This document shows positions 2,577 through 58,053 of a stretch of DNA of 64,000 bases, piece after piece (within the stretch, counting starts at the first letter, position 1; the number at the start of each line of letters is the position of its first letter). Source of the stretch: Candidatus Nanoarchaeia archaeon (lineage in GTDB: Archaea; Nanobdellota; Nanobdellia; SCGC-AAA011-G17; JAFCDX01); the NCBI GenBank assembly GCA_041651575.1, contig JBAZJB010000001.1, positions 266,609-330,608 on the forward strand. The letters are read 5' to 3'. A program made the translations under genes and the position numbers. The notes under the pieces were generated by a model. That model made no database searches. It was not told the origin of the DNA and was given only the letters and a program-made list of their open reading frames with translations.

Positions 2577-5156
2577 ATGATAACTTTTAAGGAAAAACCA
2601 GATAAAGAAGAGGAGCTTTTTGATAGTTTACACCCCATTGTTAAAAAATGGTTTGAATCTAAATTCAAGAATTTTGCTTTATCTCAGTTGTATTCTATAA
2701 AAGAAATTAATGCTCAAAAAAACATACTAGTTTCTGCTCCTACAGGTTCTGGTAAGACTTTAACAGCTTTTTTATCAATTTTAAATGAATTAATCATACT
2801 ATCCGAAAATAATTTACTTGAAAATAAAGTATATGCGGTTTATATTTCTCCATTAAAAGCACTAAATTCTGATGTACAAATAAATTTAATAGAACCATTA
2901 AAAGAAATGGAAAAAATTGCAGGAAAAGAATTTGGAATTAAGGTTTTAGTAAGAACAGGAGATACAACTGCTTCAGAGAAAGCTAAAATGTTAAAAAAAT
3001 CTCCACATATATTAATAACTACACCAGAAACATTATCCATAGTAATATCTACAATAAAATTCAAAGAAAACCTAAAAAATGTAAGATATTTGGTTATAGA
3101 TGAATTACATTCCATTGCAGAGTCTAAAAGAGGAACAAACTTATCAATAAGTATAGAAAGATTACAACATTATTGTGAAAATGAAATTACAAGAATTGGA
3201 TTAAGTGCTACTTGTGAACCAATAGAAGAAATTGCTAAGTTTTTAGTGGGTTCCTCAAGAGATTGTATAATTTCTAGAATAGATCTTTCTAAAAAAATGG
3301 ATATTAAAGTTTTATCTCCTGTACCTGACTTAATTAATATAACTTATGAGAAAAAACATGATGAATTATATAATTTGCTAGATAAATTAATCCAAGAACA
3401 TAAAACAACTTTGATCTTTACTAATACAAGAAGTGCAACTGAAAAAGTAGTACATCATTTAAAAGAAAGATTTCCAAAAAATTACACTGAAAATATTGGA
3501 GCACATCATGGTTCTCTATCAAAAGAACACAGACAAAATATAGAACAACAATTAAGAGAAGGAAAATTAAAATGTATTGTTTGCTCTACTTCTTTAGAAT
3601 TAGGTATAGATATTGGTTATATTGATTTAGTTATTTTATTGGGAAGTCCTAAGTCAATTGCAAGAGCAATACAAAGAATTGGAAGAAGCGGACACTCATT
3701 ACATGAAACTATCAAAGGAAGATTTGTTGTAATGGATAGAGATGATTTAGTTGAATGTTCTGTAATGTTAAAGAATGTTATTGAAAGAAAAGTTGATAAA
3801 ATACATATTCCCAAAGATTGTTTAGATGTTTTAGCACAGCAAATTTATGGTATTGCTATAACAGAAATGATTCATATTGATTCTTTATTTAAAATGATTA
3901 AAAAAGCATATCCTTATTCTGATTTAGAAAGAAAAGATTTTCAAGAAGTCATTGATTATCTAGCTGGAAAGTATTCTAGTTTAGAAGATAGACATATTTA
4001 TGCAAAAATTTGGTATGATGAAGAATCAAAAATGATTGGTAAAAGAGGAAAATTAGCAAGGGTTATTTATATGTCAAATATTGGAACTATACCAGAACAA
4101 TCTTTTATAACAATTAAAATAGGAGAACAAGCTATTGGTCATGTAGATGAAGGTTTTCTTGAAAAATTAAAAAGGAATGATATCTTTTTATTAGGAGGAA
4201 ACACTTACAAATTTTTATTCGCTAGAGGAATGGTAGCACAAGTATTAGCTTCTGAAAGAAAACAACCAACAGTTCCTTCTTGGTTTTCAGAAATGTTACC
4301 TATGAATTTTGATTTAGCACTAGAAATAAATAGATTTAGAGGTTTAATGAAAGAAAAATTTGATTCTAAAAAATCTGAAGAAGATATTTTAAAATTCATT
4401 AATGAATATTTATATGTAGATTCTAACGCAGGAAAAGCAATTTATGAATATTTCAAAGAACAATATTATTATACTAATAAAAATATTCCAAATCCAAAAG
4501 AATTAATCATAGAATTTTTAAAAGAAGACGAAAAAAATTATGTTATTTTCCATTCTTTATATGGAAGAAGAGTAAATGATGTTTTATCAAGAGCAATTGC
4601 TTTTGCAATATCAAGAATACAACATAAAGATGTAGAAATAGGTATAAGTGATAATGGTTTCTATATTGCTTCTCCTGAAGATAGAAAAATTCAAGTTCTT
4701 AGAGCATTTAAATATATAAAATCAAGTGAATTAAGAAAAGTTCTTGAATTAGCCATAGAAAACTCTGAAGTTCTTAAAAGAAGGTTCAGACATTGTGCAG
4801 CAAGATCATTAATGATATTAAGAAATTATAAGGGTAGAGAAAAAAGAGTTGGAAGGCAACAAGTAAGTTCTATGATATTAATGAATGCAGTTAAAATGGT
4901 TTCTAAAGATTTTTGTATTTTAAGAGAAGCTAAAAGAGAAGTACTTGAAGATTTAATGGATATTGACAATGCAACTAAAATATTAAAAGACATTGAAGAT
5001 GGGAAGATAAAAATTAAAGAAATTTCAACTAGTATTCCTAGTCCTTTTGCTTTTAATTTGGTTCTAGCAGGGCATTTAGATTTCTTAAAATTAGAAGAAA
5101 AAGCAGAATTCATAAAAAGAATGCATTCTTATATATTAGCTAAGATAAATAAATAA
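2577..5156 (+). CDS. lhr: Lhr-family large ATP-dependent helicase (DEAD/DEAH box)
   Basis: 859 aa; Walker A SAPTGSGKT, DExH (VIDELH), helicase C motifs; C-terminal DEAD/H-associated-like region. Confidence 0.75.
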   Translation: MITFKEKPDKEEELFDSLHPIVKKWFESKFKNFALSQLYSIKEINAQKNILVSAPTGSGKTLTAFLSILNELIILSENNLLENKVYAVYISPLKALNSDVQINLIEPLKEMEKIAGKEFGIKVLVRTGDTTASEKAKMLKKSPHILITTPETLSIVISTIKFKENLKNVRYLVIDELHSIAESKRGTNLSISIERLQHYCENEITRIGLSATCEPIEEIAKFLVGSSRDCIISRIDLSKKMDIKVLSPVPDLINITYEKKHDELYNLLDKLIQEHKTTLIFTNTRSATEKVVHHLKERFPKNYTENIGAHHGSLSKEHRQNIEQQLREGKLKCIVCSTSLELGIDIGYIDLVILLGSPKSIARAIQRIGRSGHSLHETIKGRFVVMDRDDLVECSVMLKNVIERKVDKIHIPKDCLDVLAQQIYGIAITEMIHIDSLFKMIKKAYPYSDLERKDFQEVIDYLAGKYSSLEDRHIYAKIWYDEESKMIGKRGKLARVIYMSNIGTIPEQSFITIKIGEQAIGHVDEGFLEKLKRNDIFLLGGNTYKFLFARGMVAQVLASERKQPTVPSWFSEMLPMNFDLALEINRFRGLMKEKFDSKKSEEDILKFINEYLYVDSNAGKAIYEYFKEQYYYTNKNIPNPKELIIEFLKEDEKNYVIFHSLYGRRVNDVLSRAIAFAISRIQHKDVEIGISDNGFYIASPEDRKIQVLRAFKYIKSSELRKVLELAIENSEVLKRRFRHCAARSLMILRNYKGREKRVGRQQVSSMILMNAVKMVSKDFCILREAKREVLEDLMDIDNATKILKDIEDGKIKIKEISTSIPSPFAFNLVLAGHLDFLKLEEKAEFIKRMHSYILAKINK

Positions 5157-5788: not shown

Positions 5789-6316
5789 TTATATTTTTAT
5801 TATTTTTTCTTCTATTGCTTCTTCTAAAGATATTCTTGCTAAATAAGGTAAAAATTCTGGACCGTATTTATCATAAATCTTTTCACGTTCTCCATCAGAA
5901 TACTTTTTATCTTCATCTGTTCTTAGATTTAAAATAAAATTTCCATATTCTGCAACTAATTCTGTTAGTTTATCATATCCTTCTGGTAATTTACCTGTTT
6001 TTAAATAAATATTAACTCCCTCAATCATACCAGGATTTACAAAATTATGTATAAAATGTCCAGATTCATGATATATCACCGCTTTAGAAAAAACACCCTT
6101 AATAAATTTTGGTTCCTTTAATGGAAAATAAATAAAATTATCTATCGAACTATAAGCAGGTACGTTTCTACTATGATCAGGATATTCGTCTGGTTTTAAA
6201 AAACGCCTAATAGTTGGTTTTCTGAATCTTTTTAATTCATCGCAACTAACTTTAAAATAAGGCATAAGATTATTTATTGCTTTTTCTATTTCCGCTTTTA
6301 ATAATTTTAGCTTCAT
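5789..6316 (-). CDS. putative HExxH zinc-metallopeptidase-like protein
   Basis: 175 aa; HESGH motif; shares one base with the upstream L,D-transpeptidase gene (translational coupling). Confidence 0.35.
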   Translation of the reverse strand: MKLKLLKAEIEKAINNLMPYFKVSCDELKRFRKPTIRRFLKPDEYPDHSRNVPAYSSIDNFIYFPLKEPKFIKGVFSKAVIYHESGHFIHNFVNPGMIEGVNIYLKTGKLPEGYDKLTELVAEYGNFILNLRTDEDKKYSDGEREKIYDKYGPEFLPYLARISLEEAIEEKIIKI

Positions 6317-7203
6317 TATCCTATTTTAACTTCAATTACTTTTTCTAAAGGATAAATTGTTCCTCTACTAGTAGTTTTTGGTTCTTTATGTAAAATATAA
6401 TGTAAAAATGCAGGATATAATTCTTCAATAACGTCTGGAATTCCTCTTACACAACCATGAGAAGGTCCAAGAGGTTTATTTGTAGAATGTAATCTTATTC
6501 CATCATCTCCAGCTAATCTAAATTCATAACCTATTAAATTAGGATTTGAATATAATTCTGCCATCCAAATTCCAAAAGGATTATTTTTTCCTGGTCCTAT
6601 AGGTCCTTTAGCACTTGCCCATTCTGGAGGATACCACCAAGGATTTTTTACTAATCTTTTAATATAAAATATTCCTGAAGGAGTACTAAAATCTCTTTCT
6701 TTAGTTTTTCCCATTCCTAAACCAACAGGTTTTTCAAGTAATAATATATTTTTAGAATTAAAACGTTGATAAACTTTTAATAAGGATTTCTTTTTATCTA
6801 TTTCTATAGAAAGGCCCATTTCGTCTACTAAAAAATTATTAGGTATTACCAAGGAATAATTTAAATTCCAACTCTGAAGGGGTTCATAACAACTAGATTT
6901 AATCTGAGAATATAATCCATTAAAATGAATTTTGAACTCAGAAACAATGTCATCCATATACTTTCCAAACAAATAAGAATTATTATTTTCTGTTATTTTT
7001 TCTCTTAAAAAATCTCTTAAATTAATATCTTTAATAATATGTTTATCTTTGTTATTAAATTCTCTGTTATAATCCTTTTTTATTAGTTCTTCTAATTCTA
7101 ATGCAGAAAAAGATATATCAGCTATACCTTCTTCTTTTTGGAATAAACAAATAGGTAAAGCTAAACTACAACTTTTGATGAAATCTCTTCTGTCAATCTT
7201 CAT
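6316..7203 (-). CDS. L,D-transpeptidase (YkuD-domain) with twin-arginine signal peptide
   Basis: 295 aa; N-terminal DRRDFIK Tat motif followed by a hydrophobic stretch; C-terminal TPSGIFYI...NPWWYPPEW...HST...SHGCVRG matches the YkuD catalytic region. Confidence 0.65.
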   Translation of the reverse strand: MKIDRRDFIKSCSLALPICLFQKEEGIADISFSALELEELIKKDYNREFNNKDKHIIKDINLRDFLREKITENNNSYLFGKYMDDIVSEFKIHFNGLYSQIKSSCYEPLQSWNLNYSLVIPNNFLVDEMGLSIEIDKKKSLLKVYQRFNSKNILLLEKPVGLGMGKTKERDFSTPSGIFYIKRLVKNPWWYPPEWASAKGPIGPGKNNPFGIWMAELYSNPNLIGYEFRLAGDDGIRLHSTNKPLGPSHGCVRGIPDVIEELYPAFLHYILHKEPKTTSRGTIYPLEKVIEVKIG

Positions 7204-7296
7204 AACTTGGTTTTTTGTAGTTTATTTATAAAGCTTTCTTTTATAGAGTGTTATCTCCTTAGTAAGTGAAAAATTTACAAAATATTTATATAGGGT

Positions 7297-8595
7297 ATGC
7301 TAAACTTTTTTATTATGTATGTCCACCAAAAAGAAAAATTAGATATTGCTCTTGCTGAAAAATTTAGAGATGTAAATAAAGTTAGGGCCATTATAGAATC
7401 ATATAATGAAAATTTTAATATAAGAAAAACTGCTGATAAAGTAGGGGTATCTACTGATAATGTTTGTTATTATTTAAGAAGATGTGGAATAACAAAACAT
7501 ACAAAAAGGGTGAAGCTTATAACGCCCCCTTTATCTGATAATAACTCTTCAAATTCTAGATTATTGAGAGAAAAAGAACATCTAACCCAATTAAGTCAAA
7601 ACAGTGTAAAAGAATTATACTCTAATGAAAAAATAACTTCAGAATTTAAAGAATATGATTTATTATATTCAAATTTATATAACAAATTAAAAGAAACTAT
7701 CCCTCTGGCTAAACTAGAAGAAATAGCTAAAGATTTAGACATCTCTAAAGAGGTTATATCTAAAAAAGATAGAATAGAAAGTATAGTAATTTATTTATTA
7801 AACAATGGAAATTTAGAAAATAAAAAAGAGATTAAAAAAGAATTTGAAAAATGTACTGAACAAAGAAATAAGATTTCTTTTAGGCATATGGGTTTATTAA
7901 AAAAGTATGCAGGATATTTTGCTAGATGTAATCCAGATGAAACCTTTGAAAATTTATATATGGAAGGCTACTTAGGATTATTAAAAGCAATTAATGGTTT
8001 TGATATTAAAAAAGGGTTTAGATTTTCTACATATAGTACTTGGTGGATTAAAGAAACTATTTTAAGACATTTACAAAATTCTGGAAAGATTAGAGTCCCA
8101 GTATATATTCAAGAAAGTGTTAATCTATTAAATAAAGTTCAAGAAAAATTCTTTGAAAAGCATGGAAGAGCTCCAACCTATCAAGAAATATCATCTATTA
8201 CTAGATGGAATTTAGATAAAATAAAAAAAATATGTGAAATAATAAAACCAAAGGTTGTTTCTTTAGATGAAGAACTAAATGATGAATATACAAAAAATTT
8301 AATGGAAATTGTAACAGATAATGAACAAAAAGGTCCTGATGAAATTATAGAAAAAGAAAGTATAAAAGAAACTATTGAAAAAGCATTATTAAATCTAACC
8401 CCAAAAGAAGAAAATATACTAAGAGCGAGACATGGAATTACGCATGATACAGAAAATAAACATTATAATAATAAAAGGGCACTTGAAGAAGTAGGAGAAG
8501 ATTATGGCCTGTCAAGACAAAGAATTGAACAAATAGAAAAAATAGCACTAAACAAATTAAAACATGATCCTGAGATATTAAAATTACGCTCTTAA
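7297..8595 (+). CDS. bacterial-type sigma-70 family RNA polymerase sigma factor (regions 2, 3, 4 plus N-terminal HTH extension)
   Basis: 432 aa; region 2 YMEGYLGLLKAINGFDIKKGFRFSTYSTWWIKETILRHL; region 2.4/3 IRVPVYIQESVNLLNK; region 4 LTPKEENILRARHGI...LEEVGEDYGLSRQRIEQIEKIALNKLKH; near-collinear with RpoD. Confidence 0.75.
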   Translation: MLNFFIMYVHQKEKLDIALAEKFRDVNKVRAIIESYNENFNIRKTADKVGVSTDNVCYYLRRCGITKHTKRVKLITPPLSDNNSSNSRLLREKEHLTQLSQNSVKELYSNEKITSEFKEYDLLYSNLYNKLKETIPLAKLEEIAKDLDISKEVISKKDRIESIVIYLLNNGNLENKKEIKKEFEKCTEQRNKISFRHMGLLKKYAGYFARCNPDETFENLYMEGYLGLLKAINGFDIKKGFRFSTYSTWWIKETILRHLQNSGKIRVPVYIQESVNLLNKVQEKFFEKHGRAPTYQEISSITRWNLDKIKKICEIIKPKVVSLDEELNDEYTKNLMEIVTDNEQKGPDEIIEKESIKETIEKALLNLTPKEENILRARHGITHDTENKHYNNKRALEEVGEDYGLSRQRIEQIEKIALNKLKHDPEILKLRS

Positions 8596-8678: not shown

Positions 8679-9332
8679 ATGAATAATATTAAACCATTAT
8701 ATCTAATGAATGAAAAAGGATTGTCTGATTTAGAACTAAAAGCTGTTCAAGATGGAATTATTGAATTAATGGATTGTGCTAATATAAAATTAGATATAAA
8801 AAATTTTGGAGTTTGGAGAGCTAATATTTCAAAACCTTGGTGGAGCATTGATTGGTATCTAGAACAAGGTAAAAGGACTAGCACACAAAATAATCAAATT
8901 AATGCAGGTTATATGCTTGATTTAATTATACAAGAACCTTGGAGAAAAAATGAAGATCATTACGATGTTATGGTATTACATTCAGATATATATTCTAGAG
9001 ATACGAGATTTGTTATAGGATTGGCTAGCGAAGGTATAGGTACAATAATCTCTGTTAAAAGATTCAAACACTCCGAACTAGGCAATGAGATGAAATATGA
9101 GTGTATAAAAACAGAAACTATGCATGAACTTGGACATGTATTTGGTTTAGTACCTAATAAAAGAAAAATTAATGTTGAAGAAAGTCTAGGTAAACATTGT
9201 ACAAATAGATGTGTAATGAGACAAGGATTAACAGTTCCACGAGATTGGATTAATATAACTAAAGACAGATTAAAGTATAAACCTTTATGTGAAATTTGTG
9301 AAACTGATTTAAAGGCTTATTTTAGAAAATAA
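8679..9332 (+). CDS. amzA: archaemetzincin (zinc metalloprotease)
   Basis: 217 aa; HELGHVFGL followed by CTNRC...CEIC, the HExxHxxGx3Cx4C...CxxC archaemetzincin signature. Confidence 0.7.
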   Translation: MNNIKPLYLMNEKGLSDLELKAVQDGIIELMDCANIKLDIKNFGVWRANISKPWWSIDWYLEQGKRTSTQNNQINAGYMLDLIIQEPWRKNEDHYDVMVLHSDIYSRDTRFVIGLASEGIGTIISVKRFKHSELGNEMKYECIKTETMHELGHVFGLVPNKRKINVEESLGKHCTNRCVMRQGLTVPRDWINITKDRLKYKPLCEICETDLKAYFRK

Positions 9333-12828: not shown

Positions 12829-13383
12829 TTATTCTTGAACTATTCCAGCCAAGTATCCTTCTGTAGATATAGGATAAGTAGTATATGGAGTTAAAACATT
12901 TCCTCTCATTCTTGATTTTTCATAAACTTTAGCTTCTAAAAGTATTGGAGTATCTACAAAATCACCCATATCTGGGCAAGATACTACAATTATTTTTTCT
13001 TGATTGAAATCAATTCCATCTTCTACTAAACCATTTGTAACTTGTTTACAACCATTATCTCCTACATTAGGCAATTCTATTTTTGTTATAGAAGCAATTC
13101 CAGATCTATCGTGTCTTATTTTTAATTCAATTGCATTACTTGTTATTTTTTTACCTAAGCAAGTAAATTCTCTATCAAATTTACAATCTTCTGCTCCTGT
13201 AAAAGATCTTACTTCTGCTGTATCTTTATCACATATTTTATCTTGATTTTTATCTAAACAACAATCTCCACCCATATAAGTATAAGGAGCATTACAACTA
13301 TCCATAACAACATTACCAGTAATACAACCCGATATAAAAAATACAGTTAATAGAATTAATATGATTGAAAGCCCTTTTTTCAT
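12829..13383 (-). CDS. secreted lipoprotein (lipobox-like ISGC), paralog of element gene 35517..36260
   Basis: Signal peptide plus SGC; shares CN.PY....G.(D/E)CCLD.N....CDKD with ORF 35517. Confidence 0.45.
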   Translation of the reverse strand: MKKGLSIILILLTVFFISGCITGNVVMDSCNAPYTYMGGDCCLDKNQDKICDKDTAEVRSFTGAEDCKFDREFTCLGKKITSNAIELKIRHDRSGIASITKIELPNVGDNGCKQVTNGLVEDGIDFNQEKIIVVSCPDMGDFVDTPILLEAKVYEKSRMRGNVLTPYTTYPISTEGYLAGIVQE

Positions 13384-28682: not shown

Positions 28683-29282
28683 ATGAATAAAAACTTAATA
28701 ATTTTGGTAGGGATATTTTTAATTCTCCCAATATTTGTATCTGCTGGAATACCTCATTCAGTTTATGGATTTTTACCTAGTTCTGATGGAACAACAATAA
28801 CAGCTTATGTAGAAAGTAGACCATCGGAGATTCTTACAGATAATATTGGTATAGGTGGAAATTCGAAAGTTAATGAAGGATGGTTAATTGATATAGGAAA
28901 TTTTAATACCCCCTGGAAAATTGGTGATATTTTAATTATAGAATTTCCTAATAAAAATATAAATTTAATTTTAAATGACGCTGGAGCTCAAGAAGTAAAA
29001 TATACAAGTTCAACAAAAGCTTCTATCACTACCATAACTAATGATTCGGATAAAGAAAGTATAAGTAACATAAATCCTATTGTAGGAAATAAAACTATAA
29101 CCGAACCAAAGAAAACATTACAACAAAAAACCATAAATTCTTCAAATAAAACAGAACTTAATAGTACTTTATCTGAGAATGAAAATAACAATAAAACAAA
29201 AAACTTTATAAAGTGGGGAATCTTTTTATTTCTAATAATTATAGTAGTGGGGGTTATATTTATAAGAAAGTTTAGAAAATGA
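28683..29282 (+). CDS. secreted surface protein with shared N-domain and C-terminal TM anchor
   Basis: 199 aa; signal peptide; AGIPHSVYGF...AYVESRPSEILTD domain shared with ORFs 31483 and 32142; C-terminal hydrophobic anchor plus KFRK. Confidence 0.45.
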   Translation: MNKNLIILVGIFLILPIFVSAGIPHSVYGFLPSSDGTTITAYVESRPSEILTDNIGIGGNSKVNEGWLIDIGNFNTPWKIGDILIIEFPNKNINLILNDAGAQEVKYTSSTKASITTITNDSDKESISNINPIVGNKTITEPKKTLQQKTINSSNKTELNSTLSENENNNKTKNFIKWGIFLFLIIIVVGVIFIRKFRK

Positions 29283-31498
29283 AATTATATAATTATTTAA
29301 TATTAATATTTTTATCTTTATTTATAATATCTACTTTTGTATATGCCTTATCTGAATCTTTTTTAATAGAACAAAGCGGGGATAAATTTAATTTAGGTCA
29401 AACTATTTATGGTTTAACGGGTGGAATTAGTGATACTTACCTTCCAATTTTACTTGCAAATCAAGTTTGGGTAGATAGTCAAGGAATAAATACTGGAACT
29501 TATAATTATCAACAATTTTTAGATTTCTATGCGGTAACTAATGTTAGTACAGGAAAAGGTACTGCTGGTTATGTATATCAACAAGACTCAAATAGAGATA
29601 ATAAACCTGTAGATGATTACCTATTTTTTGATAACATCGATACTTATCAAAAATGGGTGTCCTATTGGAATGGGACTGCTGTGGTATCTGGTTATATAAA
29701 TTATACTTCTTACGCATTTGCATGGAATTATACCTTAGATATACTTGGTTCTGAAGTAAAGGTAAAAGATGCATCCGATATTGAAGGTACGGTTTTAACT
29801 ATTTTAGGAACAAATTATACCATTGCAGATGCTACTGTCAGTAATACATCATATGGTATGCTTGATAAGTTAATTTTACTTGGAGGAAATGAAATCATCA
29901 TCTTTGAGGGAGAAACTAAAAATGGAGTTACTGTTACAGGCGTTGATGTTGCTGAAACAAAATGTATAATTCAATATGATAGTACACCTTATATTATAAA
30001 TTTAGGGGAAATTCAAACAATGCCAGACGGTTTAATGATTGGGGTTTTAGACGTGACGTATATGGGAGCAGGTTTAGATATTTGTGAATTAGCTCTCGGA
30101 GCAAAGAAAATTATATTAGAACAAAATAAAGAAGTAGAAGTTAATGGAATTAGAATAGTTAATACTACTGTTAGTTTGAATGATGGAACAACAGGATTTA
30201 ATCAATTATCTATAGTTTATATTCCTACTAACAAAACATATTTGAAAGCAGGAGAATCTTTGAAAGACCCAGTTTTTAATGCATTTGCAATAACTTTAGA
30301 TAAAATTGTTGAATCCACAGAAGAAATTAAAATAGACCCACAAGGAGATAAAGTAAAATTAACTGTTAAAAATAAATTGGGAAATCCACTTAATAATTTT
30401 ACCATATGTCATTTAAATGGAACAAAAGTTTCAGGTGCAAGAAGTTTTGTATGGGGGGATGTTAATAATCCGTTTATTGCTTGGGAAGGTGCCGGGGTAA
30501 ATATTACTAATAATACTATGAATGTAGCAAGATTAGACCAAATGACGGGAATTAGATTCTTAGCAGAAGGGAATAAAGAATCACATATTTATGAAATTAT
30601 AAACATAGATACTTCCGCAAACGAAACAGATATTAAAGAACTTGATACAGGATACATTTATTATAATCTTCCTTATTATGAAGGGCGAGTTACAACTTTT
30701 AGTGATATAAACTATAATATACAATTAGCTTTTGACCAAGATACAAGTACCAAAATGCAATGGATTAATTTTACACATCTTTCAGATGCATATGGTATGA
30801 ACTATTGGACAAAGAATGGTGGAAATATTACTTTTGGTAATACTTCTTCTATGTTAAATCAAAATGCAAATGCTGTTGATAATTGTTCAATTAAATTTGG
30901 TGAAGTTGATGTATCCAAAGAATCAGGAATTCATTTAAAACTTTTGAACTTTACTTTCTTATGGGATTCAACAGACGATGAAATTGAATTTGCAAAATAT
31001 TCTGTTGATGGTTCAGCACAAAGTAAAATTGGCTCAGGTTATTTTGTTCAAAAATATAATAATGATAGTTACACAAAAACCACAAGAACCGAATATGGTA
31101 CTAAAGTTGATATAAATCTAAAGAACGATGGTGAAGCAATAATCTACTATCCAGATGAAGCTACATATGCAGAAGTTAAAATATATGCTTTAGAAAATCC
31201 TCTAACTCCAATTGGCGGTAGCGGGGGGGGCGGTGGTGGTTCGGGTGTAGTTGAATTAATAAAATCTACAAATAAAACTGGAGTTAATGCAATTTCTCTT
31301 CCTCCAAATACAGGATTAGTAAATGCTGAAGATATTTGTGATAGTATAACTTATTCAGATGCTGTAACAAAATGGGACCCTTATACTCAAATGTATAGTG
31401 GACATCCTTGTGGAACACCTGTTAATAATTTTAATTTAGAATATGCTGTTGGGTATTTTGTAAGTATTACTCAAAATTCAACATGGAGTTTACAATGA
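29279..31498 (+). CDS. large secreted surface (glyco)protein with poly-Gly linker and shared C-terminal domain
   Basis: 739 aa; signal peptide; many N-x-S/T sequons; GGSGGGGGGSG linker; C-terminal domain shared with ORF 31483. Confidence 0.5.
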   Translation: MKLYNYLILIFLSLFIISTFVYALSESFLIEQSGDKFNLGQTIYGLTGGISDTYLPILLANQVWVDSQGINTGTYNYQQFLDFYAVTNVSTGKGTAGYVYQQDSNRDNKPVDDYLFFDNIDTYQKWVSYWNGTAVVSGYINYTSYAFAWNYTLDILGSEVKVKDASDIEGTVLTILGTNYTIADATVSNTSYGMLDKLILLGGNEIIIFEGETKNGVTVTGVDVAETKCIIQYDSTPYIINLGEIQTMPDGLMIGVLDVTYMGAGLDICELALGAKKIILEQNKEVEVNGIRIVNTTVSLNDGTTGFNQLSIVYIPTNKTYLKAGESLKDPVFNAFAITLDKIVESTEEIKIDPQGDKVKLTVKNKLGNPLNNFTICHLNGTKVSGARSFVWGDVNNPFIAWEGAGVNITNNTMNVARLDQMTGIRFLAEGNKESHIYEIINIDTSANETDIKELDTGYIYYNLPYYEGRVTTFSDINYNIQLAFDQDTSTKMQWINFTHLSDAYGMNYWTKNGGNITFGNTSSMLNQNANAVDNCSIKFGEVDVSKESGIHLKLLNFTFLWDSTDDEIEFAKYSVDGSAQSKIGSGYFVQKYNNDSYTKTTRTEYGTKVDINLKNDGEAIIYYPDEATYAEVKIYALENPLTPIGGSGGGGGGSGVVELIKSTNKTGVNAISLPPNTGLVNAEDICDSITYSDAVTKWDPYTQMYSGHPCGTPVNNFNLEYAVGYFVSITQNSTWSLQ
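31223..31230 (+). repeat. G8 homopolymer within the Gly-linker coding region of ORF 29279..31498
   Basis: gcggggggggcgg read directly; genome is about 30% GC, so this run is conspicuous. Confidence 0.8.
31364..31435 (+). repeat. 72-bp perfect direct repeat (copy A) shared by surface-protein genes 29279 and 31483
   Basis: Identical to 31987..32058 (gtaacaaaatgggaccc...aataattttaat). Confidence 0.85.
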
Positions 31499-32121
31499 AA
31501 AATAAAATAAAAATCATTCAAATTTTTTGTTTGTTAATGTTATTAAGTTTACCTCTTATATCAGCAGGTACGCCTCACATTAATTGGGGTTATGTAAATG
31601 ATGCTGTAGATGGAACATTAGCAAATGGGGCTAATGTTACGGCTTATATAGAAACAAGACCTACAGAAATATTAACAGATATTGTAGGAGTTACTGGTAA
31701 TTCTGGAATATCAAATGCTTGGTTAATTGATACTGGTAATTTTCCAACTGCTTGGTCAGCAGGGAATAACTTAATAATACAAATTGATAAAAATGGTTAC
31801 AAATCAAACACAAATATAATATTAGATAACTCTGGCTCTCAACAAAGTGTTAATATGACTCTTTCAAAAATTTTAATATTAGTTAAACCTATCAATAAAA
31901 CTGGAGTTAATGCTATATCTTTATTATGGAATAGCCAATTAATTACTGCCCAGGATATTTGTAATGATGTTCAATATTCAGATGCAGTAACAAAATGGGA
32001 CCCTTATACTCAAATGTATAGTGGACATCCTTGTGGAACACCTGTTAATAATTTTAATATAGAAAAGGGAGTAGCTTATTTTGTAAGTGTTACTCAAAAT
32101 TCAACTTGGGTGATGAAATAA
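31483..32121 (+). CDS. secreted protein made of the shared N-domain plus the shared C-domain (minimal family member)
   Basis: 212 aa; N-domain AGTPHINWGY...AYIETRPTEILTD...NFPTAWSAGNNLII; C-domain NKTGVNAISL...TKWDPYTQMYSGHPCGTPVNNFN. Confidence 0.5.
   Translation: MEFTMKNKIKIIQIFCLLMLLSLPLISAGTPHINWGYVNDAVDGTLANGANVTAYIETRPTEILTDIVGVTGNSGISNAWLIDTGNFPTAWSAGNNLIIQIDKNGYKSNTNIILDNSGSQQSVNMTLSKILILVKPINKTGVNAISLLWNSQLITAQDICNDVQYSDAVTKWDPYTQMYSGHPCGTPVNNFNIEKGVAYFVSVTQNSTWVMK
31987..32058 (+). repeat. 72-bp perfect direct repeat (copy B)
   Basis: See copy A. Confidence 0.85.
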
Positions 32122-32141
32122 AAAGAGTTATATATTATTAA

Positions 32142-34832
32142 ATGGACAATATAAAAATGAAAAATAAATTTAAAATAGGATTTTTATCAATTCTCTTAGT
32201 TTTATCTTTAATCTCGGTTAGTAATTTGGTTTCAGCAGGAACACCACATACAGTGTATGGATATGTATTTGATGCTACTGACGGAACATTAGCAAATGGA
32301 GCTACTATTACAGCGTATATTGAATCAAGACCTTCTGAGACATTAACTGGTACAGTGGATGCAACAAATTGGTGGGATATTGATGTAGGTAATTTTCCAA
32401 CTGCTTGGTCAGCAGGAAATAATTTAATAATTAAAGTTGATAAAAGTGGGCATAAAGATACTACAAATATAATTCTTGATACAAGCGGTGCACAACAAGC
32501 TTATGATATGACTTTACTTCCACAATACGATTTAGATTTATCACCAACTACTCAAACGATTAATACGGTTCCAGGAGTAAATTATTATGAATATTATATT
32601 AATATAACTAATATGGGATATGCAAATGATACTTTTCTTGTATATTTGAATGGAGAATATCAGTATACAACTGATGTACTTCCTTCTTATTGGTATACAG
32701 AAGATATGTGGTATTCTAATACTACAGACACTTTAGCAGGTACATATATAGATAATATAACGGTAGTATCTCAACATGATTCAACTAAAAGAAAAACTTT
32801 TTTACTTACAATAATTGTTAATCCAATATATGGCATAGATTTATCTCCAAAAACACAAAGTATTAGTGTATATCAAGGAACAGATTTTGAAGTTAGTTAT
32901 AATGTTACTAATATTGGGAATATAAATGATACTTATTTAGTTTACTTAAATGGAAAATATAATTATAGTATTGATGAACTTCCTTCTTATTGGTCTTCAG
33001 AAGAGTTTTGGGATTATACTGCAGATGAACCTATAGGAACAGTATATACAGACCTATTTTTTGTAATATCAGAACATAATCCAAATGTAAATGATACTTT
33101 TGCATTAACTGTAACAGTTATTGCTCCTCCCTGTGTTCCTAATTGGATTTTAAATTCTACTTGGACAACCTGTAATCTACTTGATTCACAATCTAAAAAT
33201 TATTATGATTCAAATAGTTGTGGAAATGAAACAGGAAAGCCTACAGATATAACACAATCATGTGATTTTTGTACTCCTAATATAATTGCTATAGCACCCG
33301 GAAGCTGTTCAATAAATGATACAGCTACCACAATTTTTGATGACTCAAATAATTGTTATGCTCAAACTGGATTGGAAAGCGACCAAGTTCCAAATCCAAT
33401 TGTAAATTCTTGTGACTATTGTACTCCTTCCATAAGTTCAAGTAATTCAACTTGTGGAACAAATGATTTATTCACAGAAACATTTACAGATTCAAATGGT
33501 TGTTATGCTCAAACAGGACTTATTTTAGATAATGTTCCTTTATCACTACAATATACTTGTGATTATTGTACTCCAAATATCCAAACCACAACAGAAAACT
33601 GTACTACAAGTGATACTTACACTACCACATTCACAGATTTAAATGGTTGTTTTGGTGTAACTGGATTAGTTTTAGACGCTGTTTCTGTACCAACAATAAA
33701 TTCATGTGATTATTGTACTCCATTAATAACCTCCACTAATTCAACATGTCAACCAAATAATACTTCAACAGAAACATTTACAGATTCAAATGGTTGTTAT
33801 GGTTTAACAAATTTAAACGCGGATAAAATTCCAAATCCAATAATATATGGTTGTGTTTATGTAGCCCCTTCTTGTTCTCCCGATAATTGGACATTAAATA
33901 CCACTTGGTCAAGTTGTAATGCAAATGATTTACAATACCAAGTTTATTATGACCCAGATAATTGTAATAATAACACAGGAAAACCTACCGATGTAAGTCA
34001 AGCTTGTGATTTTTGTACTCCAAGTATATTTGATACAAATTCTACTTGTCAATTAAATGATTTATTTACACAATCATTCTCCGATAATAATAATTGTTTT
34101 GCTCAAACAAGTCTTGTAGCAGACAAAGTTCCAAATAGTAATAGTTATTCTTGTGATTATTGTACTCCTTTAGTTGTATTAACAAATTCAAGTTGTAGTA
34201 TTAATGATACCTTTACAGAAAGTTTTACAGATTCAAATGGTTGTTATGCTCAAACAAATTTGGCTTCAGATATAGTAATACCTGCTCCAACATTATATGC
34301 TTGTGATTTCTGTAATCCCTCATTAACATCCACTAATTCAACATGTCAACCAACCAATACTTTAACAGAAATCTTTGCAGATTCAAATGGGTGTTTTGCA
34401 TTAACTAATTTAGTTTCTGATGATATCTTTATTCCTAATCAAATAGTATATAATTGTACTTATGTTGCTCCAGTAACTTCTTCTGGTGGCGGAGGAGGCG
34501 GTGGTGGAGGCGGAGGTTCAGGTAAACCAACCTGTGTTGAAAAAGATTATAATTTCACAGATTGGTCAGAATGTTTAGTAGATGGAAAATCAACAAGAAC
34601 TTATATTTTGAATAATAAAAAATGTATTAAAAATACAAAAACATATGATGTAACTTTATACTTAGAAAAAGATTGTTATTATAAGGAAGAAAAACCAGTA
34701 CAAGAATCAATAGAAGAAGATAGTGGTATGACTGGAATTACTGGTGGGGCAGTTGTAGATGGAAATGGTTTATTTAGTTCAATAGGAGATTTCTTCTCAG
34801 GTATTTGGAATTGGTTTAAAAATTTATTTTAA
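32142..34832 (+). CDS. giant secreted surface protein: shared N-domain, duplicated ~100-aa domain, about 12 tandem Cys-rich ~45-aa repeats (CDYCTP...), poly-Gly linker
   Basis: 896 aa; repeat units SCDYCTP(S/N)I...NSTC...FTDSNGCYAQT(G/N)L; linker SSGGGGGGGGGGGSG. Confidence 0.5.
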   Translation: MDNIKMKNKFKIGFLSILLVLSLISVSNLVSAGTPHTVYGYVFDATDGTLANGATITAYIESRPSETLTGTVDATNWWDIDVGNFPTAWSAGNNLIIKVDKSGHKDTTNIILDTSGAQQAYDMTLLPQYDLDLSPTTQTINTVPGVNYYEYYINITNMGYANDTFLVYLNGEYQYTTDVLPSYWYTEDMWYSNTTDTLAGTYIDNITVVSQHDSTKRKTFLLTIIVNPIYGIDLSPKTQSISVYQGTDFEVSYNVTNIGNINDTYLVYLNGKYNYSIDELPSYWSSEEFWDYTADEPIGTVYTDLFFVISEHNPNVNDTFALTVTVIAPPCVPNWILNSTWTTCNLLDSQSKNYYDSNSCGNETGKPTDITQSCDFCTPNIIAIAPGSCSINDTATTIFDDSNNCYAQTGLESDQVPNPIVNSCDYCTPSISSSNSTCGTNDLFTETFTDSNGCYAQTGLILDNVPLSLQYTCDYCTPNIQTTTENCTTSDTYTTTFTDLNGCFGVTGLVLDAVSVPTINSCDYCTPLITSTNSTCQPNNTSTETFTDSNGCYGLTNLNADKIPNPIIYGCVYVAPSCSPDNWTLNTTWSSCNANDLQYQVYYDPDNCNNNTGKPTDVSQACDFCTPSIFDTNSTCQLNDLFTQSFSDNNNCFAQTSLVADKVPNSNSYSCDYCTPLVVLTNSSCSINDTFTESFTDSNGCYAQTNLASDIVIPAPTLYACDFCNPSLTSTNSTCQPTNTLTEIFADSNGCFALTNLVSDDIFIPNQIVYNCTYVAPVTSSGGGGGGGGGGGSGKPTCVEKDYNFTDWSECLVDGKSTRTYILNNKKCIKNTKTYDVTLYLEKDCYYKEEKPVQESIEEDSGMTGITGGAVVDGNGLFSSIGDFFSGIWNWFKNLF

Positions 34833-35157: not shown

Positions 35158-35520
35158 ATGAAAATTAAATTAATAATCGGATTACTTATAATTTCTATAT
35201 TTTTAATAAGTGGATGTAATCAAGAAAATATTAATCCTGCTCCCTTGAATTGGCAAGAATTATTAGATAATTGTCAAAAAAATTTAGATGAATGTAAAAT
35301 GCTTGGAATTCCAAAAATAACAGAATTTACTATTAATACTGAAGATTTAATAGGAAAAAAAATTGACTTTGATATATGTAAAATAGAATGGGTGAAACAA
35401 AACCCAGATTTACCTTTACCTAGTCAATGTTCTATTCAAGTTTGGGGGAACCAATTTCAAAAAAATCCAGATAAATTAATAAATTTAAAAGTTTTTTGTG
35501 ATTGTTGGTATAAAGAATGA
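35158..35520 (+). CDS. small lipoprotein (LISGC lipobox-like)
   Basis: 120 aa. Confidence 0.4.
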   Translation: MKIKLIIGLLIISIFLISGCNQENINPAPLNWQELLDNCQKNLDECKMLGIPKITEFTINTEDLIGKKIDFDICKIEWVKQNPDLPLPSQCSIQVWGNQFQKNPDKLINLKVFCDCWYKE

Positions 35521-36260
35521 AAATGAAAATAATATTGGGGACATTAGTACTTTGTTTATTTCTTATAAGTGGATGTAATAATGGAATAATTTGTAACAAA
35601 CCTTATATTCAAGTAGGAACTGAGTGTTGTTTAGACCAAAATAGTAATTCTATTTGTGATAAAGATGAACCAGAAAAAAATGAAGAAAAGAATTATTCTA
35701 CAATAAATTCTGGTATAATATTACCAGAAGGAAAATGTATTATTAAAGGTTCAGTTGCTCCTACTGTTATAGATGTAACCTGCACCCAAAATAGTGATTG
35801 TTACGAATCTGCTCGAGGTATAGGCACTACTGATATGAGTTTAGTTTATTGTTCTGGAGCCACACAATCAGAAGGAATACAAACTTTTAAAGAATGTAAA
35901 GAGTATGATAAAGAAAAAGGTTTATGGACAGGAACAGTGTTATGTAAAGATAAACAAGATTGTTATGATTTCTATCAAAAAGTGAACCAATATTATAGTG
36001 ATGTTCCAATTCCAGAAACAATGGATTGTAAAGAGACATCATTTAAAAAACTTCCTGATACAAACAATAATTTTATAAGTTGTAATACTAACATAGATTG
36101 TATTGAAAAAATTATGCCTGGAATTAATTCACCAGAAATACCCTCAGAATTACGTTCTTTATATTTAGAATATTATGGTATAAGATGTAATAATAATTTT
36201 TGTGAAGTAAATGAAGGACTCTTTACTCAGTGGGGAAGTAGTTTTGTTAGTAAAATATAA
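35517..36260 (+). CDS. Cys-rich lipoprotein, paralog of chromosomal 12829..13383
   Basis: 247 aa; LISGCNNGIICNKPYIQVGTECCLDQNSNSICDKD. Confidence 0.45.
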   Translation: MKMKIILGTLVLCLFLISGCNNGIICNKPYIQVGTECCLDQNSNSICDKDEPEKNEEKNYSTINSGIILPEGKCIIKGSVAPTVIDVTCTQNSDCYESARGIGTTDMSLVYCSGATQSEGIQTFKECKEYDKEKGLWTGTVLCKDKQDCYDFYQKVNQYYSDVPIPETMDCKETSFKKLPDTNNNFISCNTNIDCIEKIMPGINSPEIPSELRSLYLEYYGIRCNNNFCEVNEGLFTQWGSSFVSKI

Positions 36261-36285: not shown

Positions 36286-36936
36286 TTAAATAAAAATTTT
36301 ATCTAACTCCACTTTTTCTTTTTCTATACCAATATGCGTATAAATTTGTGTAGCCCTGTTATCTGTATGCCCAAGCATTTTTCCAATAGCCAATAAGTCC
36401 ATACCTTTATTATAAAGATATGTTGCATACGTATGTCTTAATGTATGGAACCTATAATTGAATACTTTTCTGCCCTTACTATCAAATCCGATTGAGGTTC
36501 TTATACCTGCCTTTTCTAAATGACTATTAAATTTTTTTCTCATCACAGAAATGTTATATTGTTTATCTAATCTCAAACGCATAGGGAATAGATATTTACT
36601 ACCTCCTATATACTGCAACCATTTATCCAAAAGTGGAATTAATGGTTTTGGTATTGCTACATTTCTATCTTTACCATATCCTTGAACAGACCTATTTGGA
36701 TTTTTAGAATCTTTTATAGATAAAACTCGATTATATATATCGATGTCTTCTACTTTTAATTTACATAATTCTCCAATTCTTAATCCACAAAAAAACCCTA
36801 ATAAATAAGCCATCATATAAAGAGGTTCATTTACCACCCCAAATAATCTTTTTAATTCTCTTATTTCAAATACTTTTGGTAGTTTATATGGTGATTTCGC
36901 TTTGTCTCCTCTAAACATTTTCGTCAAGCCTCCCAA
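36286..36936 (-). CDS. int: tyrosine recombinase/integrase, catalytic domain
   Basis: 216 aa; GLRIGEL (Arg), HTLRHTYAT (HxxR), TQIYTH (Tyr nucleophile). Confidence 0.7.
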   Translation of the reverse strand: MGGLTKMFRGDKAKSPYKLPKVFEIRELKRLFGVVNEPLYMMAYLLGFFCGLRIGELCKLKVEDIDIYNRVLSIKDSKNPNRSVQGYGKDRNVAIPKPLIPLLDKWLQYIGGSKYLFPMRLRLDKQYNISVMRKKFNSHLEKAGIRTSIGFDSKGRKVFNYRFHTLRHTYATYLYNKGMDLLAIGKMLGHTDNRATQIYTHIGIEKEKVELDKIFI

Positions 36937-39160: not shown

Positions 39161-40628
39161 ATTCCTGTTGATCCTGCAGGAGAATGCTGCTATTGGGATT
39201 CGATTAAGCCATGCAAGTCAGGGGTAGCAATACACCGGCATAAGGCTCAGTAACACGTCGATAATCTAACCTTAAGTCTAGGATAACCTTGGGAAACTGA
39301 GACTAAAACTGGATAAAAGAAAGATACTGGAATGTTTTTTCTTTGAAAGGTAACGCTTAAGGATGAGTTGGCGGCTGATTAGGCTGTTGGTGAAGTAAAG
39401 GCTCACCAAACCAAAGATCAGTAGGGGCCCTGAGAGGGGTAGCCCCGAGAAGGGTACTGAGATACTGACCCTAGCCCTAAGGGGTGCAGCAGGCGCGAAA
39501 ACTTTACAATGCGCGAAAGCGTGATAAGGGAATCCCAAGTGCTTATCCATTGGATAGGCTTTTGCCAAGTGTAAAAAGCTTGGAGAATAAGTGGTGGGCA
39601 AGACTGGTGCCAGCCGCCGCGGTAACACCAGCGTCCACGAGTGGCATTCACTATTATTGGGTCTAAAGCATTCGTAGTTGGTTTGTCAAGTCTTTTGTGA
39701 AATTGTTGGACTTAATTCAACAGCGTGCAAGAGATACTAACAAGCTCGAGACCGGGAGGGGACAAGAGTATTTCAGGGGGAGCGGTAAAATGTTATAATC
39801 CTTGAAAGACTTCCAGTGGCGAAGGCGCTTGTCCAGAACGGTTCTGACAATGAGGAATGAAAGCTAGGGGCGCAAAGCGGATTAGATACCCGCGTAGTCC
39901 TAGCCGTAAACGCTGCGAGCTATGTGTTGCATATTCCTAGAGAATGTGCAGTGCCTAAGTGAAGACGTTAAGCTCGCTACCTGGGAATTACGGTCGCAAG
40001 GCTGAAACTTAAAGGAATAGGCGGGGGCTCACACAAGGAGTGGAGTGTGCGGTTCAATTGGATTCCACCCCGGAAATCTTACCAAGATCGACGGCAGAAT
40101 GAAGGTCAGATTAAAGGTTTTACCTAACAAGCCGAGAGGTATTGCATGGCCGTCGTCAGCTCGTGCCGTAAGGTGTCCAGTTAAGTCTGGCAACGAGCAA
40201 GACCCACATGTATATTTGCTAACATTTCAGTAATGAAGAATGAGCACAATATATGGACTGCCTGTGAAAACAGGAGGAAGGCGTGGGCAACGATAGGTCC
40301 GTATGATCTGAATATCTTGGGCTACACGCGCGCAACAATGGTAGGGACAATGGGTCACAACTCCGAGAGGAGAAGTTAATCCTCAAAACCCTATCTTAGT
40401 CTAGATCGAGCATTGAAACTCATGCTCGTGACAACGGAATTCCTAGTAATCGTTCATCACTATTGAACGGTGAATATGTCCCTGAGCCTTGCACTCACCG
40501 CCCGTCAAACCATTCGAGTAGGGTTCAAATGAGGTCTGTTTTTTAGAATAGAACAAATTTGGATTCAATAAGAAGGGTTAAGTCGTCACAAGGTATCTGT
40601 AGGGGAACCTGCAGATGGATCACCTCCT
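39161..40628 (+). rRNA. rrs: 16S rRNA (archaeal)
   Basis: 5' attcctgttgatcctgcagg; internal gtgccagccgccgcggtaa; 3' ggatcacctcct; flanked by a complementary processing stem (39091..39117 with 40665..40688). Confidence 0.9.
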
Positions 40629-40688
40629 ATATTTTTTTAAAATATAATATAATAAATAATAGAACTCACTAAATGCTTTTGCTCATAC

Positions 40689-40824
40689 TTGATTAACTGG
40701 GCCTGTAGTTCAGCGGTAGAATACCTCCCTTGCACATAAATTTTTGATAAAATTTTATCGAAGAAAGGAGGGGGTCTCGGGTTCGAAATAGTTTTTTCAG
40801 AAATTGAATAACTTTGAAAATCCC
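40689..40824 (+). tRNA. tRNA-Ala(TGC) with two introns: canonical anticodon-loop intron (40725..40755) and a 33-nt T-loop intron (40778..40810, between positions 59 and 60)
   Basis: Exons fold into acceptor GGGCCTG/CGGGTCC, D arm GTTC/GAAT, anticodon arm CCTCC-CTTGCA-GGAGG, T arm TCGGG-TTCGAAT-CCCGA, discriminator A. Confidence 0.65.
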
Positions 40825-40920
40825 GACGGGTCCACATTTAAGTATTTATTTATGAGGATCCATAACATAATTGTTTGGGTTTGATAGTTAATATATCATA
40901 TTAACTGTGCATAGGATTTG

Positions 40921-43806: not shown

Positions 43807-43916
43807 TCCAAAAATCCTATGCACATTTATTTTTTATTTCTATAAATTTTTCCAAATCCTAAATTTTAATTTCTTAAAACATTAAATTTATATATAGCTA
43901 TTGCAGTATACATTAT

Positions 43917-44247
43917 GTAGGTAAGATAGCTAACTATCGCTTGCAAAAGTGAGGAAAGTCCGTCCACTAAACTTTTGATAAAAATCAAAAGATAATATCG
44001 GTTGCTTGTCTTGACACAAGTTCCAGAAATGGAAGGCAACTGCTCAGAAACGGAATGTCCTTTAGCTGTTATAAAAATGTGGCTGTGAAATTTCTCGTGA
44101 GAGAGATGAGTTAACCAGCTGAATAGGTTAAAGGGAACATTGAAACGACAGACCCTATCAGTGCAAGTCTGTAAAGACGCTTAGTAGAATGTTAGCACAA
44201 TCTTTCCAAATGGAGATTGACAAAAGACGGCTTATTTCTTACCTACA
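43917..44247 (+). ncRNA. rnpB: RNase P RNA (archaeal type A-like)
   Basis: P1 stem gtaggtaaga/tcttacctac; CR-I gaggaaagtccg; CR-V acaaaagacggcttat; about 331 nt. Confidence 0.7.
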
Positions 44248-51134: not shown

Positions 51135-52052
51135 ATGAAAAAACTAGTTATAATTTTAATATTAGCAATCTTTCTAATGAGTAGTTGTTCAAAAGAAAAC
51201 ATTGAAGTTTCTAGATATTCAAAAATACCAACAACGTCAGTTAAAATAACTACAGATACAGATGCTTCTCCTGTAAAATCACTTTCAGAAGATTATCAAG
51301 ATTCTATACCTCTTCCTGGAAAAGTAAATAGTGCAGGAGCAGAAGATTCTGCATTTATTATGCCAGATGGAAATACTTTATATTTCTTTTTTACTCCAGA
51401 TGTTAAAGTTCCTATAGAAAAACAAATCTTAGATGGAGTTACTGGAATTTGGGTTTCTAAAAAAATAAATAATGAATTTCAAGAACCAACAAGAGTATTT
51501 TTACAAGATTCAGGAAAAGTTGCTGGAGATGGTTGTGAATTTGTCCAAGATAATACAATGTTATTTTGTTCTGTAAGAGAAGGTTATACAGGAATAAATT
51601 GGTTTAGTGCAGAATTTAAAGATGGGATCTGGAAGAACTGGAAACTTGTTGATTTTGATTCTAATTATAAAGTTGGAGAATTACATATAATAAAAGACGA
51701 ATTATATTTTCATTCAGACAGGTCTAGTGGAAAAGGGGGTTTAGATATTTGGATGTCTAAAAAAGCAAATGATAAATGGACTGAACCTGTAAATGTTGAA
51801 GAAGTAAATACTGCAGGAGATGAAGGATGGCCTTTTATTAACCAAGATGAAACTGAATTATGGATTACCAAAGATTATGGATTGTGGAGATCAAAAAAAG
51901 TAGGTGAAAAATGGACAAAACCAGAATTAATGTTTTCTCCATTAGCAGGAGAAGCTTCTTTAGATAATAATGGAAATGTTTATTTCACACATCATTTTTT
52001 AAATGGAGATAAAATAATAGAAGCAGATATTTATGTTGCTTATAAAAAATAA
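51135..52052 (+). CDS. TolB-like beta-propeller (PD40-repeat) lipoprotein
   Basis: 305 aa; lipobox-like LMSSCS; repeated ...SDRSSGKGGLDIWMS.../...GDEGWPFI... PD40-like units. Confidence 0.45.
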   Translation: MKKLVIILILAIFLMSSCSKENIEVSRYSKIPTTSVKITTDTDASPVKSLSEDYQDSIPLPGKVNSAGAEDSAFIMPDGNTLYFFFTPDVKVPIEKQILDGVTGIWVSKKINNEFQEPTRVFLQDSGKVAGDGCEFVQDNTMLFCSVREGYTGINWFSAEFKDGIWKNWKLVDFDSNYKVGELHIIKDELYFHSDRSSGKGGLDIWMSKKANDKWTEPVNVEEVNTAGDEGWPFINQDETELWITKDYGLWRSKKVGEKWTKPELMFSPLAGEASLDNNGNVYFTHHFLNGDKIIEADIYVAYKK

Positions 52053-55621: not shown

Positions 55622-57586
<1,965 letters not shown>

Positions 57587-57587
57587 A

Positions 57588-58052: not shown

Positions 58053-58053
58053 A

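Follow-up and report, generated by a model that had tools for sequence, protein, structure and literature searches.

A predicted exported YkuD-family protein of a Nanoarchaeia archaeon, its mainly DPANN clade and a candidate role on bacterial peptidoglycan

In the YkuD family, attack on an L,D bond by a Cys/His pair, proceeding via a thioester, is established chemistry. Bd1075 of Bdellovibrio, Pgp2 of Campylobacter and Csd6 of Helicobacter are YkuD-fold L,D-carboxypeptidases, and Tlde1a of Salmonella (PDB 7uma) is a toxic type VI secretion system (T6SS) effector with L,D-carboxypeptidase and exchange activity (PMC9638812). These four proteins are precedents for a use of the YkuD fold outside ordinary wall building. 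In Pacearchaeota and Woesearchaeota, GH23 murein transglycosylases and a muramoyltetrapeptide carboxypeptidase have been reported, and bacterial hosts were inferred for these archaea (PMC8204110, PMC9723730, PMC11537232). In this study, we analyzed a 64-kb stretch of contig JBAZJB010000001.1 from a Candidatus Nanoarchaeia archaeon, hereafter the window, which carries a gene for a YkuD-family (L,D-transpeptidase fold) protein on the minus strand at 6316..7203. We lean, with moderate confidence, towards the reading that this protein is an exported cysteine L,D-transpeptidase or carboxypeptidase acting on the stem peptides of bacterial peptidoglycan. In the literature searched, we found no mention of L,D-transpeptidases in DPANN archaea.

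The YkuD-family protein and its predicted export

The gene (stop codon at 6316-6318) encodes a protein of 295 residues that begins with MKIDRRDFIKSCSLALPICLF, and its profile match, its motif and its predicted fold all place it in the YkuD family. The Pfam model YkuD (PF03734) matched residues 133-264 with E=1.4e-17 and 65.1 bits, well above the cut-off of 23.4, over profile positions 4-136 of 146, and the strings TPSGIFYI, HST and SHGCVRG were all found in the protein. The catalytic His239 (6487-6489) and Cys251 (6451-6453) are located within HST...SHGCVR. This His/Cys motif, HSTNKPLGPSHGCVR, aligns with the motif IHGTN...SKGCIRM of Bacillus subtilis YkuD. In the window protein, the loop from His to Cys is shortened by four residues. 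On these points, our results agree with a preliminary description of the locus, which had reported an open reading frame (ORF) at this position with a DRRDFIK signal and a C-terminal YkuD catalytic region. The automatic annotation as an L,D-transpeptidase is already known, as an identical protein (100% match) is present in NCBI under the name 'MAG: L,D-transpeptidase [Candidatus Nanoarchaeia archaeon]', MAG denoting a metagenome-assembled genome, on a 766-kb contig.

The AlphaFold2 model, calculated from a 33-sequence alignment, showed a predicted local distance difference test (pLDDT) score of 88.3 and a predicted template modeling (pTM) score of 0.84, and the predicted chain appears to adopt the YkuD beta-sandwich fold. 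When the model was compared with the PDB by Foldseek, 30 matches were obtained at E<=1e-3, all but one of which were L,D-transpeptidase-fold proteins, with Bd1075, B. subtilis YkuD, Pgp2, LdtA and YcbB at the top. The structure comparison figures were 15.4 for LdtA/YcbB, 10-14 for classical L,D-transpeptidases, 13.0 for Csd6, 11.7 for Pgp2, 10.4 for DpaA, 9.2 for Bd1075 and 8.4 for Tlde1a. The protein can be divided into a signal peptide region (residues 1-25; 7129..7203), a mainly helical, family-specific N-terminal domain (residues 26-125; 6829..7128) with the conserved motifs LR..I...YLFG..LD and P.NFLV..MD, and the YkuD catalytic domain followed by a family-specific C-terminal extension (residues 126-295; 6319..6828), all on the minus strand.

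The signal peptide region contains DRRDFIK (residues 4-10), the short hydrophobic region SCSLALPICLF and Cys19. DRRDFIK fits the twin-arginine consensus of the S/T-R-R-x-F-L-K type, and no other ORF of the window has an N-terminus of this RR type. Among 35 family members, 31 have a hydrophobic N-terminus, and the pattern RR-x-F/M-hydrophobic occurs in seven, on distant branches; besides the window protein, it is seen in P0002, P0006, P0031, P0034, P0039 and the member at locus L006. These N-terminal features make export of the YkuD protein well supported and the twin-arginine translocation (Tat) route a plausible one. In 13 of the 35 members a Cys stands just after the hydrophobic region, and three of the 35 show a strict lipobox. 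The LPIC of the window protein (Ile at -1; Cys19) departs from the strict lipobox [LVI][ASTVI][GAS]C, and canonical lipoboxes (ISGC, SSC) are present in other ORFs of the window. Lipoproteins have been described as prevalent in DPANN archaea (PMC12462473), and the enzyme may be tethered to the membrane.

The YkuD gene is separated from a divergent sigma-70-like gene by an intergenic region of 93 bp (7204..7296). At 22-31 nt upstream of the ATG of YkuD, this region contains TTTATAAATA, which is possibly an archaeal TATA box, AT-rich strings being common at 26% GC.

Distribution and inheritance of the clade

In an exhaustive HMMER scan, 1.84 billion cluster representatives gave 132 proteins at E<1e-3 and about 30 at E<1e-30. 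The latter matches span query residues of about 60-294 and therefore take in sequence upstream of the Pfam domain. The clade amounts to about 35 clusters at 50% identity among these representatives. It is sharply delimited, with members scoring at least 278 bits in the family-profile search, whereas the best generic bacterial ErfK-type protein reached 84 bits. When a word index was searched with the family profile, mostly generic bacterial ErfK candidates were returned, together with three family members. A scan of 185,579 GTDB species representatives with a 10-sequence alignment found at least four loci, a count that is a lower bound because the search patterns were strict.

Across 33 aligned members, H239, G250 and C251 do not vary, H249 and R253 are conserved in at least 90%, and the His...x-G-C pair is kept in all 35 members checked. 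The preliminary description had held that its assignment would fall if the catalytic Cys/His proved not to be conserved, and these alignments remove that objection. After the catalytic Cys, members of the family share a further conserved segment, Y.PH.E.K.N.RGTIYPL.

The members with a named taxon are labeled Nanoarchaeia, Pacearchaeota, Woesearchaeota, Nanoarchaeota or simply 'archaeon', with the sole exception of one labeled Thermodesulfobacteriota. Archaeal neighbors were seen at five loci (L006, L007, L009, L010 and L011): the gene order is rpS2-YkuD-enolase at the Pacearchaeota loci L006 and L007, a proteasome subunit and tRNA synthetases are found near YkuD at L009, and Cbf5 and NreA at L011. 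Locus L008 (225-3420 and 8001-9284) is on a contig of 52% GC that carries bacterial 23S and 5S rRNA as well as genes for ketoacyl synthases and a chemoreceptor, and its member (P0019/P0160) has 427 residues with an extra N-terminal extension. Because this contig carries bacterial 23S and 5S rRNA, the clade has genuine bacterial members. In a rough neighbor-joining tree, the bacterial members are nested among the archaeal ones with weak bootstrap support. We take L008 as evidence for inter-domain transfer of the clade, for which this tree leaves both directions possible. The clade further documents that a group of cell-wall enzymes was exchanged between Thermodesulfobacteriota-like bacteria and DPANN archaea.

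The existence of bacterial members, the label Thermodesulfobacteriota on one family member and the overwhelmingly bacterial distribution of YkuD could also suggest an artefact, that is, a bacterial gene placed in an archaeal MAG by faulty assembly or binning, or a horizontally acquired gene that is decaying without function. The window is archaeal because it contains archaeal small-subunit and large-subunit rRNA together with RNase P RNA; its housekeeping genes include EF-2, EF-1alpha and the Lhr helicase, and its GC content is about 26-28% throughout, the rRNA operon excepted. The YkuD gene shares the 64-kb stretch with this rRNA operon, EF-2 and EF-1alpha, within the 766-kb contig, has a GC content of 26%, the same as its surroundings, and encodes intact catalytic residues. 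Furthermore, the closest relative, P0002 (locus L001, GCA_028716945.1), shares 67% identity with the window protein, comes from an independent MAG and is encoded at the equivalent position, flanked by the Lhr helicase and Metallophos genes. Between the two genomes, the synonymous divergence (dS) of YkuD is 0.53, near the values of its neighbors Lhr (0.46), Metallophos (0.33) and NDK (0.48), and its ratio of non-synonymous to synonymous divergence (dN/dS) is 0.34, against 0.10, 0.09 and 0.18, respectively. YkuD is thus an orthologue inherited together with the genes around it. Purifying selection acts on it, and its rate of change at non-synonymous sites is about threefold higher, as is often the case in surface proteins. 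On the strength of this synteny and of the dN/dS results, we consider mis-binning or a decaying gene practically excluded. A phage or mobile-element origin was likewise rejected, as the YkuD protein had no phage match and the gene showed no compositional anomaly.

Candidate substrate

Considering that the enzyme is predicted to be exported, that the archaeon itself would hardly be expected to synthesize murein, that murein genes were not found in the window and that murein comes up in DPANN studies only as material that is degraded, the bacterial wall or fragments of it, whether of hosts, prey or necromass, would be the likeliest substrate. The bacterial member at L008 links the clade with organisms that contain murein. 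We propose that the enzyme would be exported to the exterior of the archaeal cell, probably by its signal of the twin-arginine type. There, by analogy with the characterized enzymes of the family, His239 would activate Cys251 for attack on the L,D bond that joins position 3 of a tetrapeptide stem to its terminal D-Ala, so that D-Ala would be released and a thioester formed on Cys251. This thioester could be resolved by water, giving an L,D-carboxypeptidase outcome, or by an amine, giving a cross-link or an exchange. In this way, the enzyme may remodel or trim the peptidoglycan of a host or prey or scavenge its peptides, adding to the activities of the lytic transglycosylases and L,D-carboxypeptidases that have been described from Pacearchaeota and Woesearchaeota.

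Several observations weigh against this proposal. No peptidoglycan-binding domain (LysM, PG_binding_1 or SPOR) was found in the YkuD protein, and its N-terminal domain (residues 26-125) showed no known relatives in the searches made. The hydrophobic region of its signal is short and contains Lys, and a motif scan of the 64-kb window for the Tat machinery revealed no credible TatA-like ORF. The Pfam scan covered most window ORFs of at least 150 residues, corresponding to 64 kb of the 766-kb contig, and no other murein-directed gene was seen among them. Finally, the clade is rare and is not a general trait of DPANN archaea.

The preliminary description had regarded any substrate in such an archaeon as unusual and had named a pseudomurein-like polymer, the S-layer or the wall of a bacterial partner. 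A target outside the archaeon's own wall is still the most sensible reading. A pseudomurein gene set was rejected, as no transpeptidase orthologues were reported for pseudomurein producers in the literature read (PMC10117817). That the archaeon builds a murein-like wall of its own, with YkuD as the cross-linking enzyme, is highly improbable: its sole support is the presence of the enzyme, and no Mur, MraY, MurG or penicillin-binding-protein-type gene was found among the window ORFs scanned against Pfam, in line with the DPANN reviews and surveys consulted, in which murein appears only as a target of degradation.

A more serious alternative, which we nevertheless consider unlikely, is that the enzyme acts on the archaeon's own envelope, where the same thioester chemistry, with no bacterial target, would serve to cross-link or anchor proteins of the surface or a different polymer that contains amides. 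On the one hand, a private N-terminal domain stands where a murein-binding domain could be, many members resemble membrane-anchored lipoproteins, a protein class common in DPANN archaea (PMC12462473), and some loci, such as L006 and L007, lie among housekeeping genes. A T2SSE-type ATPase (type IV pilus/secretion) of about 760 residues also adjoins YkuD at L009 (4998-7292, minus strand) and L010 (9018-11303, minus strand), hinting at a link to a surface apparatus. On the other hand, the clade has true bacterial members, the amino acids of pseudomurein are all of the L form, and its producers yielded no transpeptidase orthologues (PMC10117817). The chemistry also points away from an archaeal envelope. 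To our knowledge, every characterized YkuD enzyme uses an L,D bond that leads to a terminal D-Ala, and we know of no archaeal envelope polymer with D-amino acids.

The two targets could also be combined. If the enzyme is tethered, bacterial tetrapeptide stems might serve as acyl donors and an amine of an archaeal surface protein as the acceptor, so that the DPANN cell would be covalently welded to the host sacculus, with the private N-terminal domain selecting the archaeal acceptor. We offer this as a speculative and rather improbable idea. If true, it would be an inter-domain version of the anchoring of Braun lipoprotein and outer-membrane proteins by ErfK-type enzymes.

Action on bacterial peptidoglycan, the reading we prefer, would bear on the lifestyle of these archaea. 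We know of no member of the Pacearchaeota, Woesearchaeota or Nanoarchaeia that has been cultivated with a bacterial host, and for this reason bacterial versus archaeal hosts are still debated. A second, mechanistically different class of murein-directed enzyme would strengthen the hypothesis of bacterial hosts for these three groups. Since carbapenems acylate L,D-transpeptidases and these enzymes also build in D-amino-acid probes, the activity could be assayed with sacculi from candidate hosts or made visible by imaging where cells touch. What we did not find described in the literature searched is a distinct, mainly DPANN clade of YkuD proteins with a private N-terminal domain, which is conserved and predicted to be exported, in organisms that are not expected to make the canonical substrate. 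We regard this as modest yet useful further evidence that these archaea associate with bacteria, and it would extend the murein-targeting toolkit of DPANN archaea.

Neighboring genes and comparison with known systems

Downstream of YkuD on the minus strand lies the gene for an orphan-family protein of 175 residues (5789..6316), with HESGH at residues 83-87 (6056-6070), which is predicted to be cytoplasmic. The YkuD stop codon TAA (6318-6316) and the ATG of this HExxH gene (6316-6314) share one base in ggaTAATGaag, exactly as the preliminary description had noted, and in this genome the two genes are probably co-transcribed, judging from this overlap. The HExxH protein has the homologues P0004 (53% identity) and P0005 (46%), both of which keep the HExxH motif; H83, E84, H87 and E119 are invariant in the three sequences. 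No match was obtained for it in Pfam, NCBIfam, PHROGs or PDB sequences, and tblastn against phages gave no informative match. Structure prediction, which the preliminary description had suggested for the N-terminal half of YkuD and for the HExxH partner, gave the model described above for YkuD; for the HExxH protein, the AlphaFold2 model from three sequences was of low confidence (pLDDT 52) and gave no Foldseek match.

That description had further presented YkuD and the HExxH protein as a coupled pair within a bacterial-interaction island next to the sigma-70 gene. Such a functional two-gene module, consisting of the enzyme and a metalloprotease partner or regulator, would fit the one-base TAATG overlap on the same strand with no terminator between the genes, and also the fact that the HExxH gene is real and conserved. 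When all ORFs of 10 related loci were compared by BLAST with the window ORFs, however, no HExxH homologue was found beside YkuD at any of the nine other YkuD loci (L001 and L005-L012; flanks of 6-8 kb), and at L002, the one informative HExxH locus, no YkuD gene was nearby. In addition, the HExxH protein has no N-terminal hydrophobic segment or signal peptide and would therefore reside in another compartment than the exported YkuD protein. A conserved pairing was thus rejected, and the HExxH gene is a lineage-specific neighbor, not a conserved partner.

The island fared no better. The sigma-70-like gene (7297..8595, plus strand) is divergent from YkuD and encodes 432 residues, comprising a long N-terminal extension and sigma-70 regions 2, 3 and 4. 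The closest relative lacks it at the syntenic locus (L001), and the GC content is uniform, which speaks against an island. Sigma-70 genes in DPANN archaea, notably Woesearchaeota, have been described before (PMC8204110). The Lhr-Metallophos interval varies between close relatives and is a variable hotspot of which YkuD is the shared element; this variability fits the module, as does an archaemetzincin-like gene near YkuD in two distant genomes, that of the window and that of L011. On balance, we regard the module in a bacterial-interaction island as improbable.

Other genes were observed around YkuD in the window and at the related loci. At L001 (7153-8560), an N6/N4 DNA methyltransferase gene and an HNH endonuclease gene occupy the place where the window has the HExxH gene and a 136-residue ORF. 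The window ORF at 8679-9332 (plus strand) resembles archaemetzincin Zn proteases, with the motif HELGH...C..C.M...C..C and an NCBIfam archmetzin score of 59 bits, below the cut-off. Its homologue at L011 (7690-8379, plus strand; 50% identity) lies two genes downstream of a YkuD member that is 33% identical; with two of ten loci showing this neighborhood, it represents weak linkage or coincidence. At the Pacearchaeota locus L005, a secreted HExxH protease of the matrixin/astacin-like type that carries a CARDB domain is encoded about 1 kb upstream of YkuD (3923-4825, minus strand), and it has no sequence relation to the window HExxH protein.

Farther away in the window, a phage-integrase-family gene (36286-36936, minus strand) is located about 2 kb upstream of the rRNA operon (39161-44243, plus strand). 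The archaeal RNase P RNA gene comes after the 23S rRNA at a distance of only about 100 nt, and no 5S rRNA was detected within the window. Bacterial-type DNA gyrase B and A genes are found in this DPANN genome at 55685-60480 (plus strand). Four ORFs (12829-13383, minus strand; 35158-35520, 35517-36260 and 51135-52052, plus strand) have classical lipoprotein signal peptides with ISGC or SSC lipoboxes, consistent with the reported prevalence of lipoproteins in DPANN archaea, and two of the four also carry Cys-rich CCLDxNxxxICDKD motifs. Four consecutive secreted proteins of 199, 739, 212 and 896 residues without a Pfam domain are encoded at 28683-34832 (plus strand). In all four, a similar signal peptide precedes an AG(I/T)PH motif (e.g., SAGTPH), and they may form a cluster of surface proteins or adhesins. 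The 874-residue product of 60477-63101 (minus strand) is also secreted and unannotated.

Compared with the bacterial L,D-transpeptidases of the YkuD/ErfK family (PF03734), such as B. subtilis YkuD, Escherichia coli YcbB, Vibrio cholerae LdtA and Mycobacterium tuberculosis LdtMt2, the window enzyme shares the Pfam match, the H...SHGC[IV]R motif and the predicted export. It differs from them in that its host is an archaeon and its clade is sharply separated by profile score. Typical bacterial enzymes are modular, whereas the window protein has no LysM, PG_binding_1 or Ig-like domain and carries its private helical N-terminal domain instead. The conserved segment after the catalytic Cys is an extra feature of the clade, and the shorter His-Cys loop is one of the window protein. 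Bd1075, Pgp2 and Csd6 have a C-terminal NTF2-like domain, which is absent from the window protein, and act on the producer's own wall, which for Bdellovibrio is that of the predator cell itself. The sequence of the window enzyme is compatible with a carboxypeptidase or a transpeptidase outcome. Tlde1a is delivered by the T6SS and is accompanied by the immunity protein Tldi1, whereas the window enzyme has an N-terminal signal peptide and no T6SS, and an immunity gene was neither seen nor expected; the two are related at the superfamily level only. The large GH23 proteins and the muramoyltetrapeptide carboxypeptidase of Pacearchaeota and Woesearchaeota come from the same organisms and share the inferred target, the bacterial wall, as well as the ecological inference of bacterial hosts, prey or necromass. 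GH23 enzymes cleave glycosidic bonds, and the muramoyltetrapeptide carboxypeptidase is a cytoplasmic S66 peptidase, whereas the window enzyme belongs to another class and would act on another bond.

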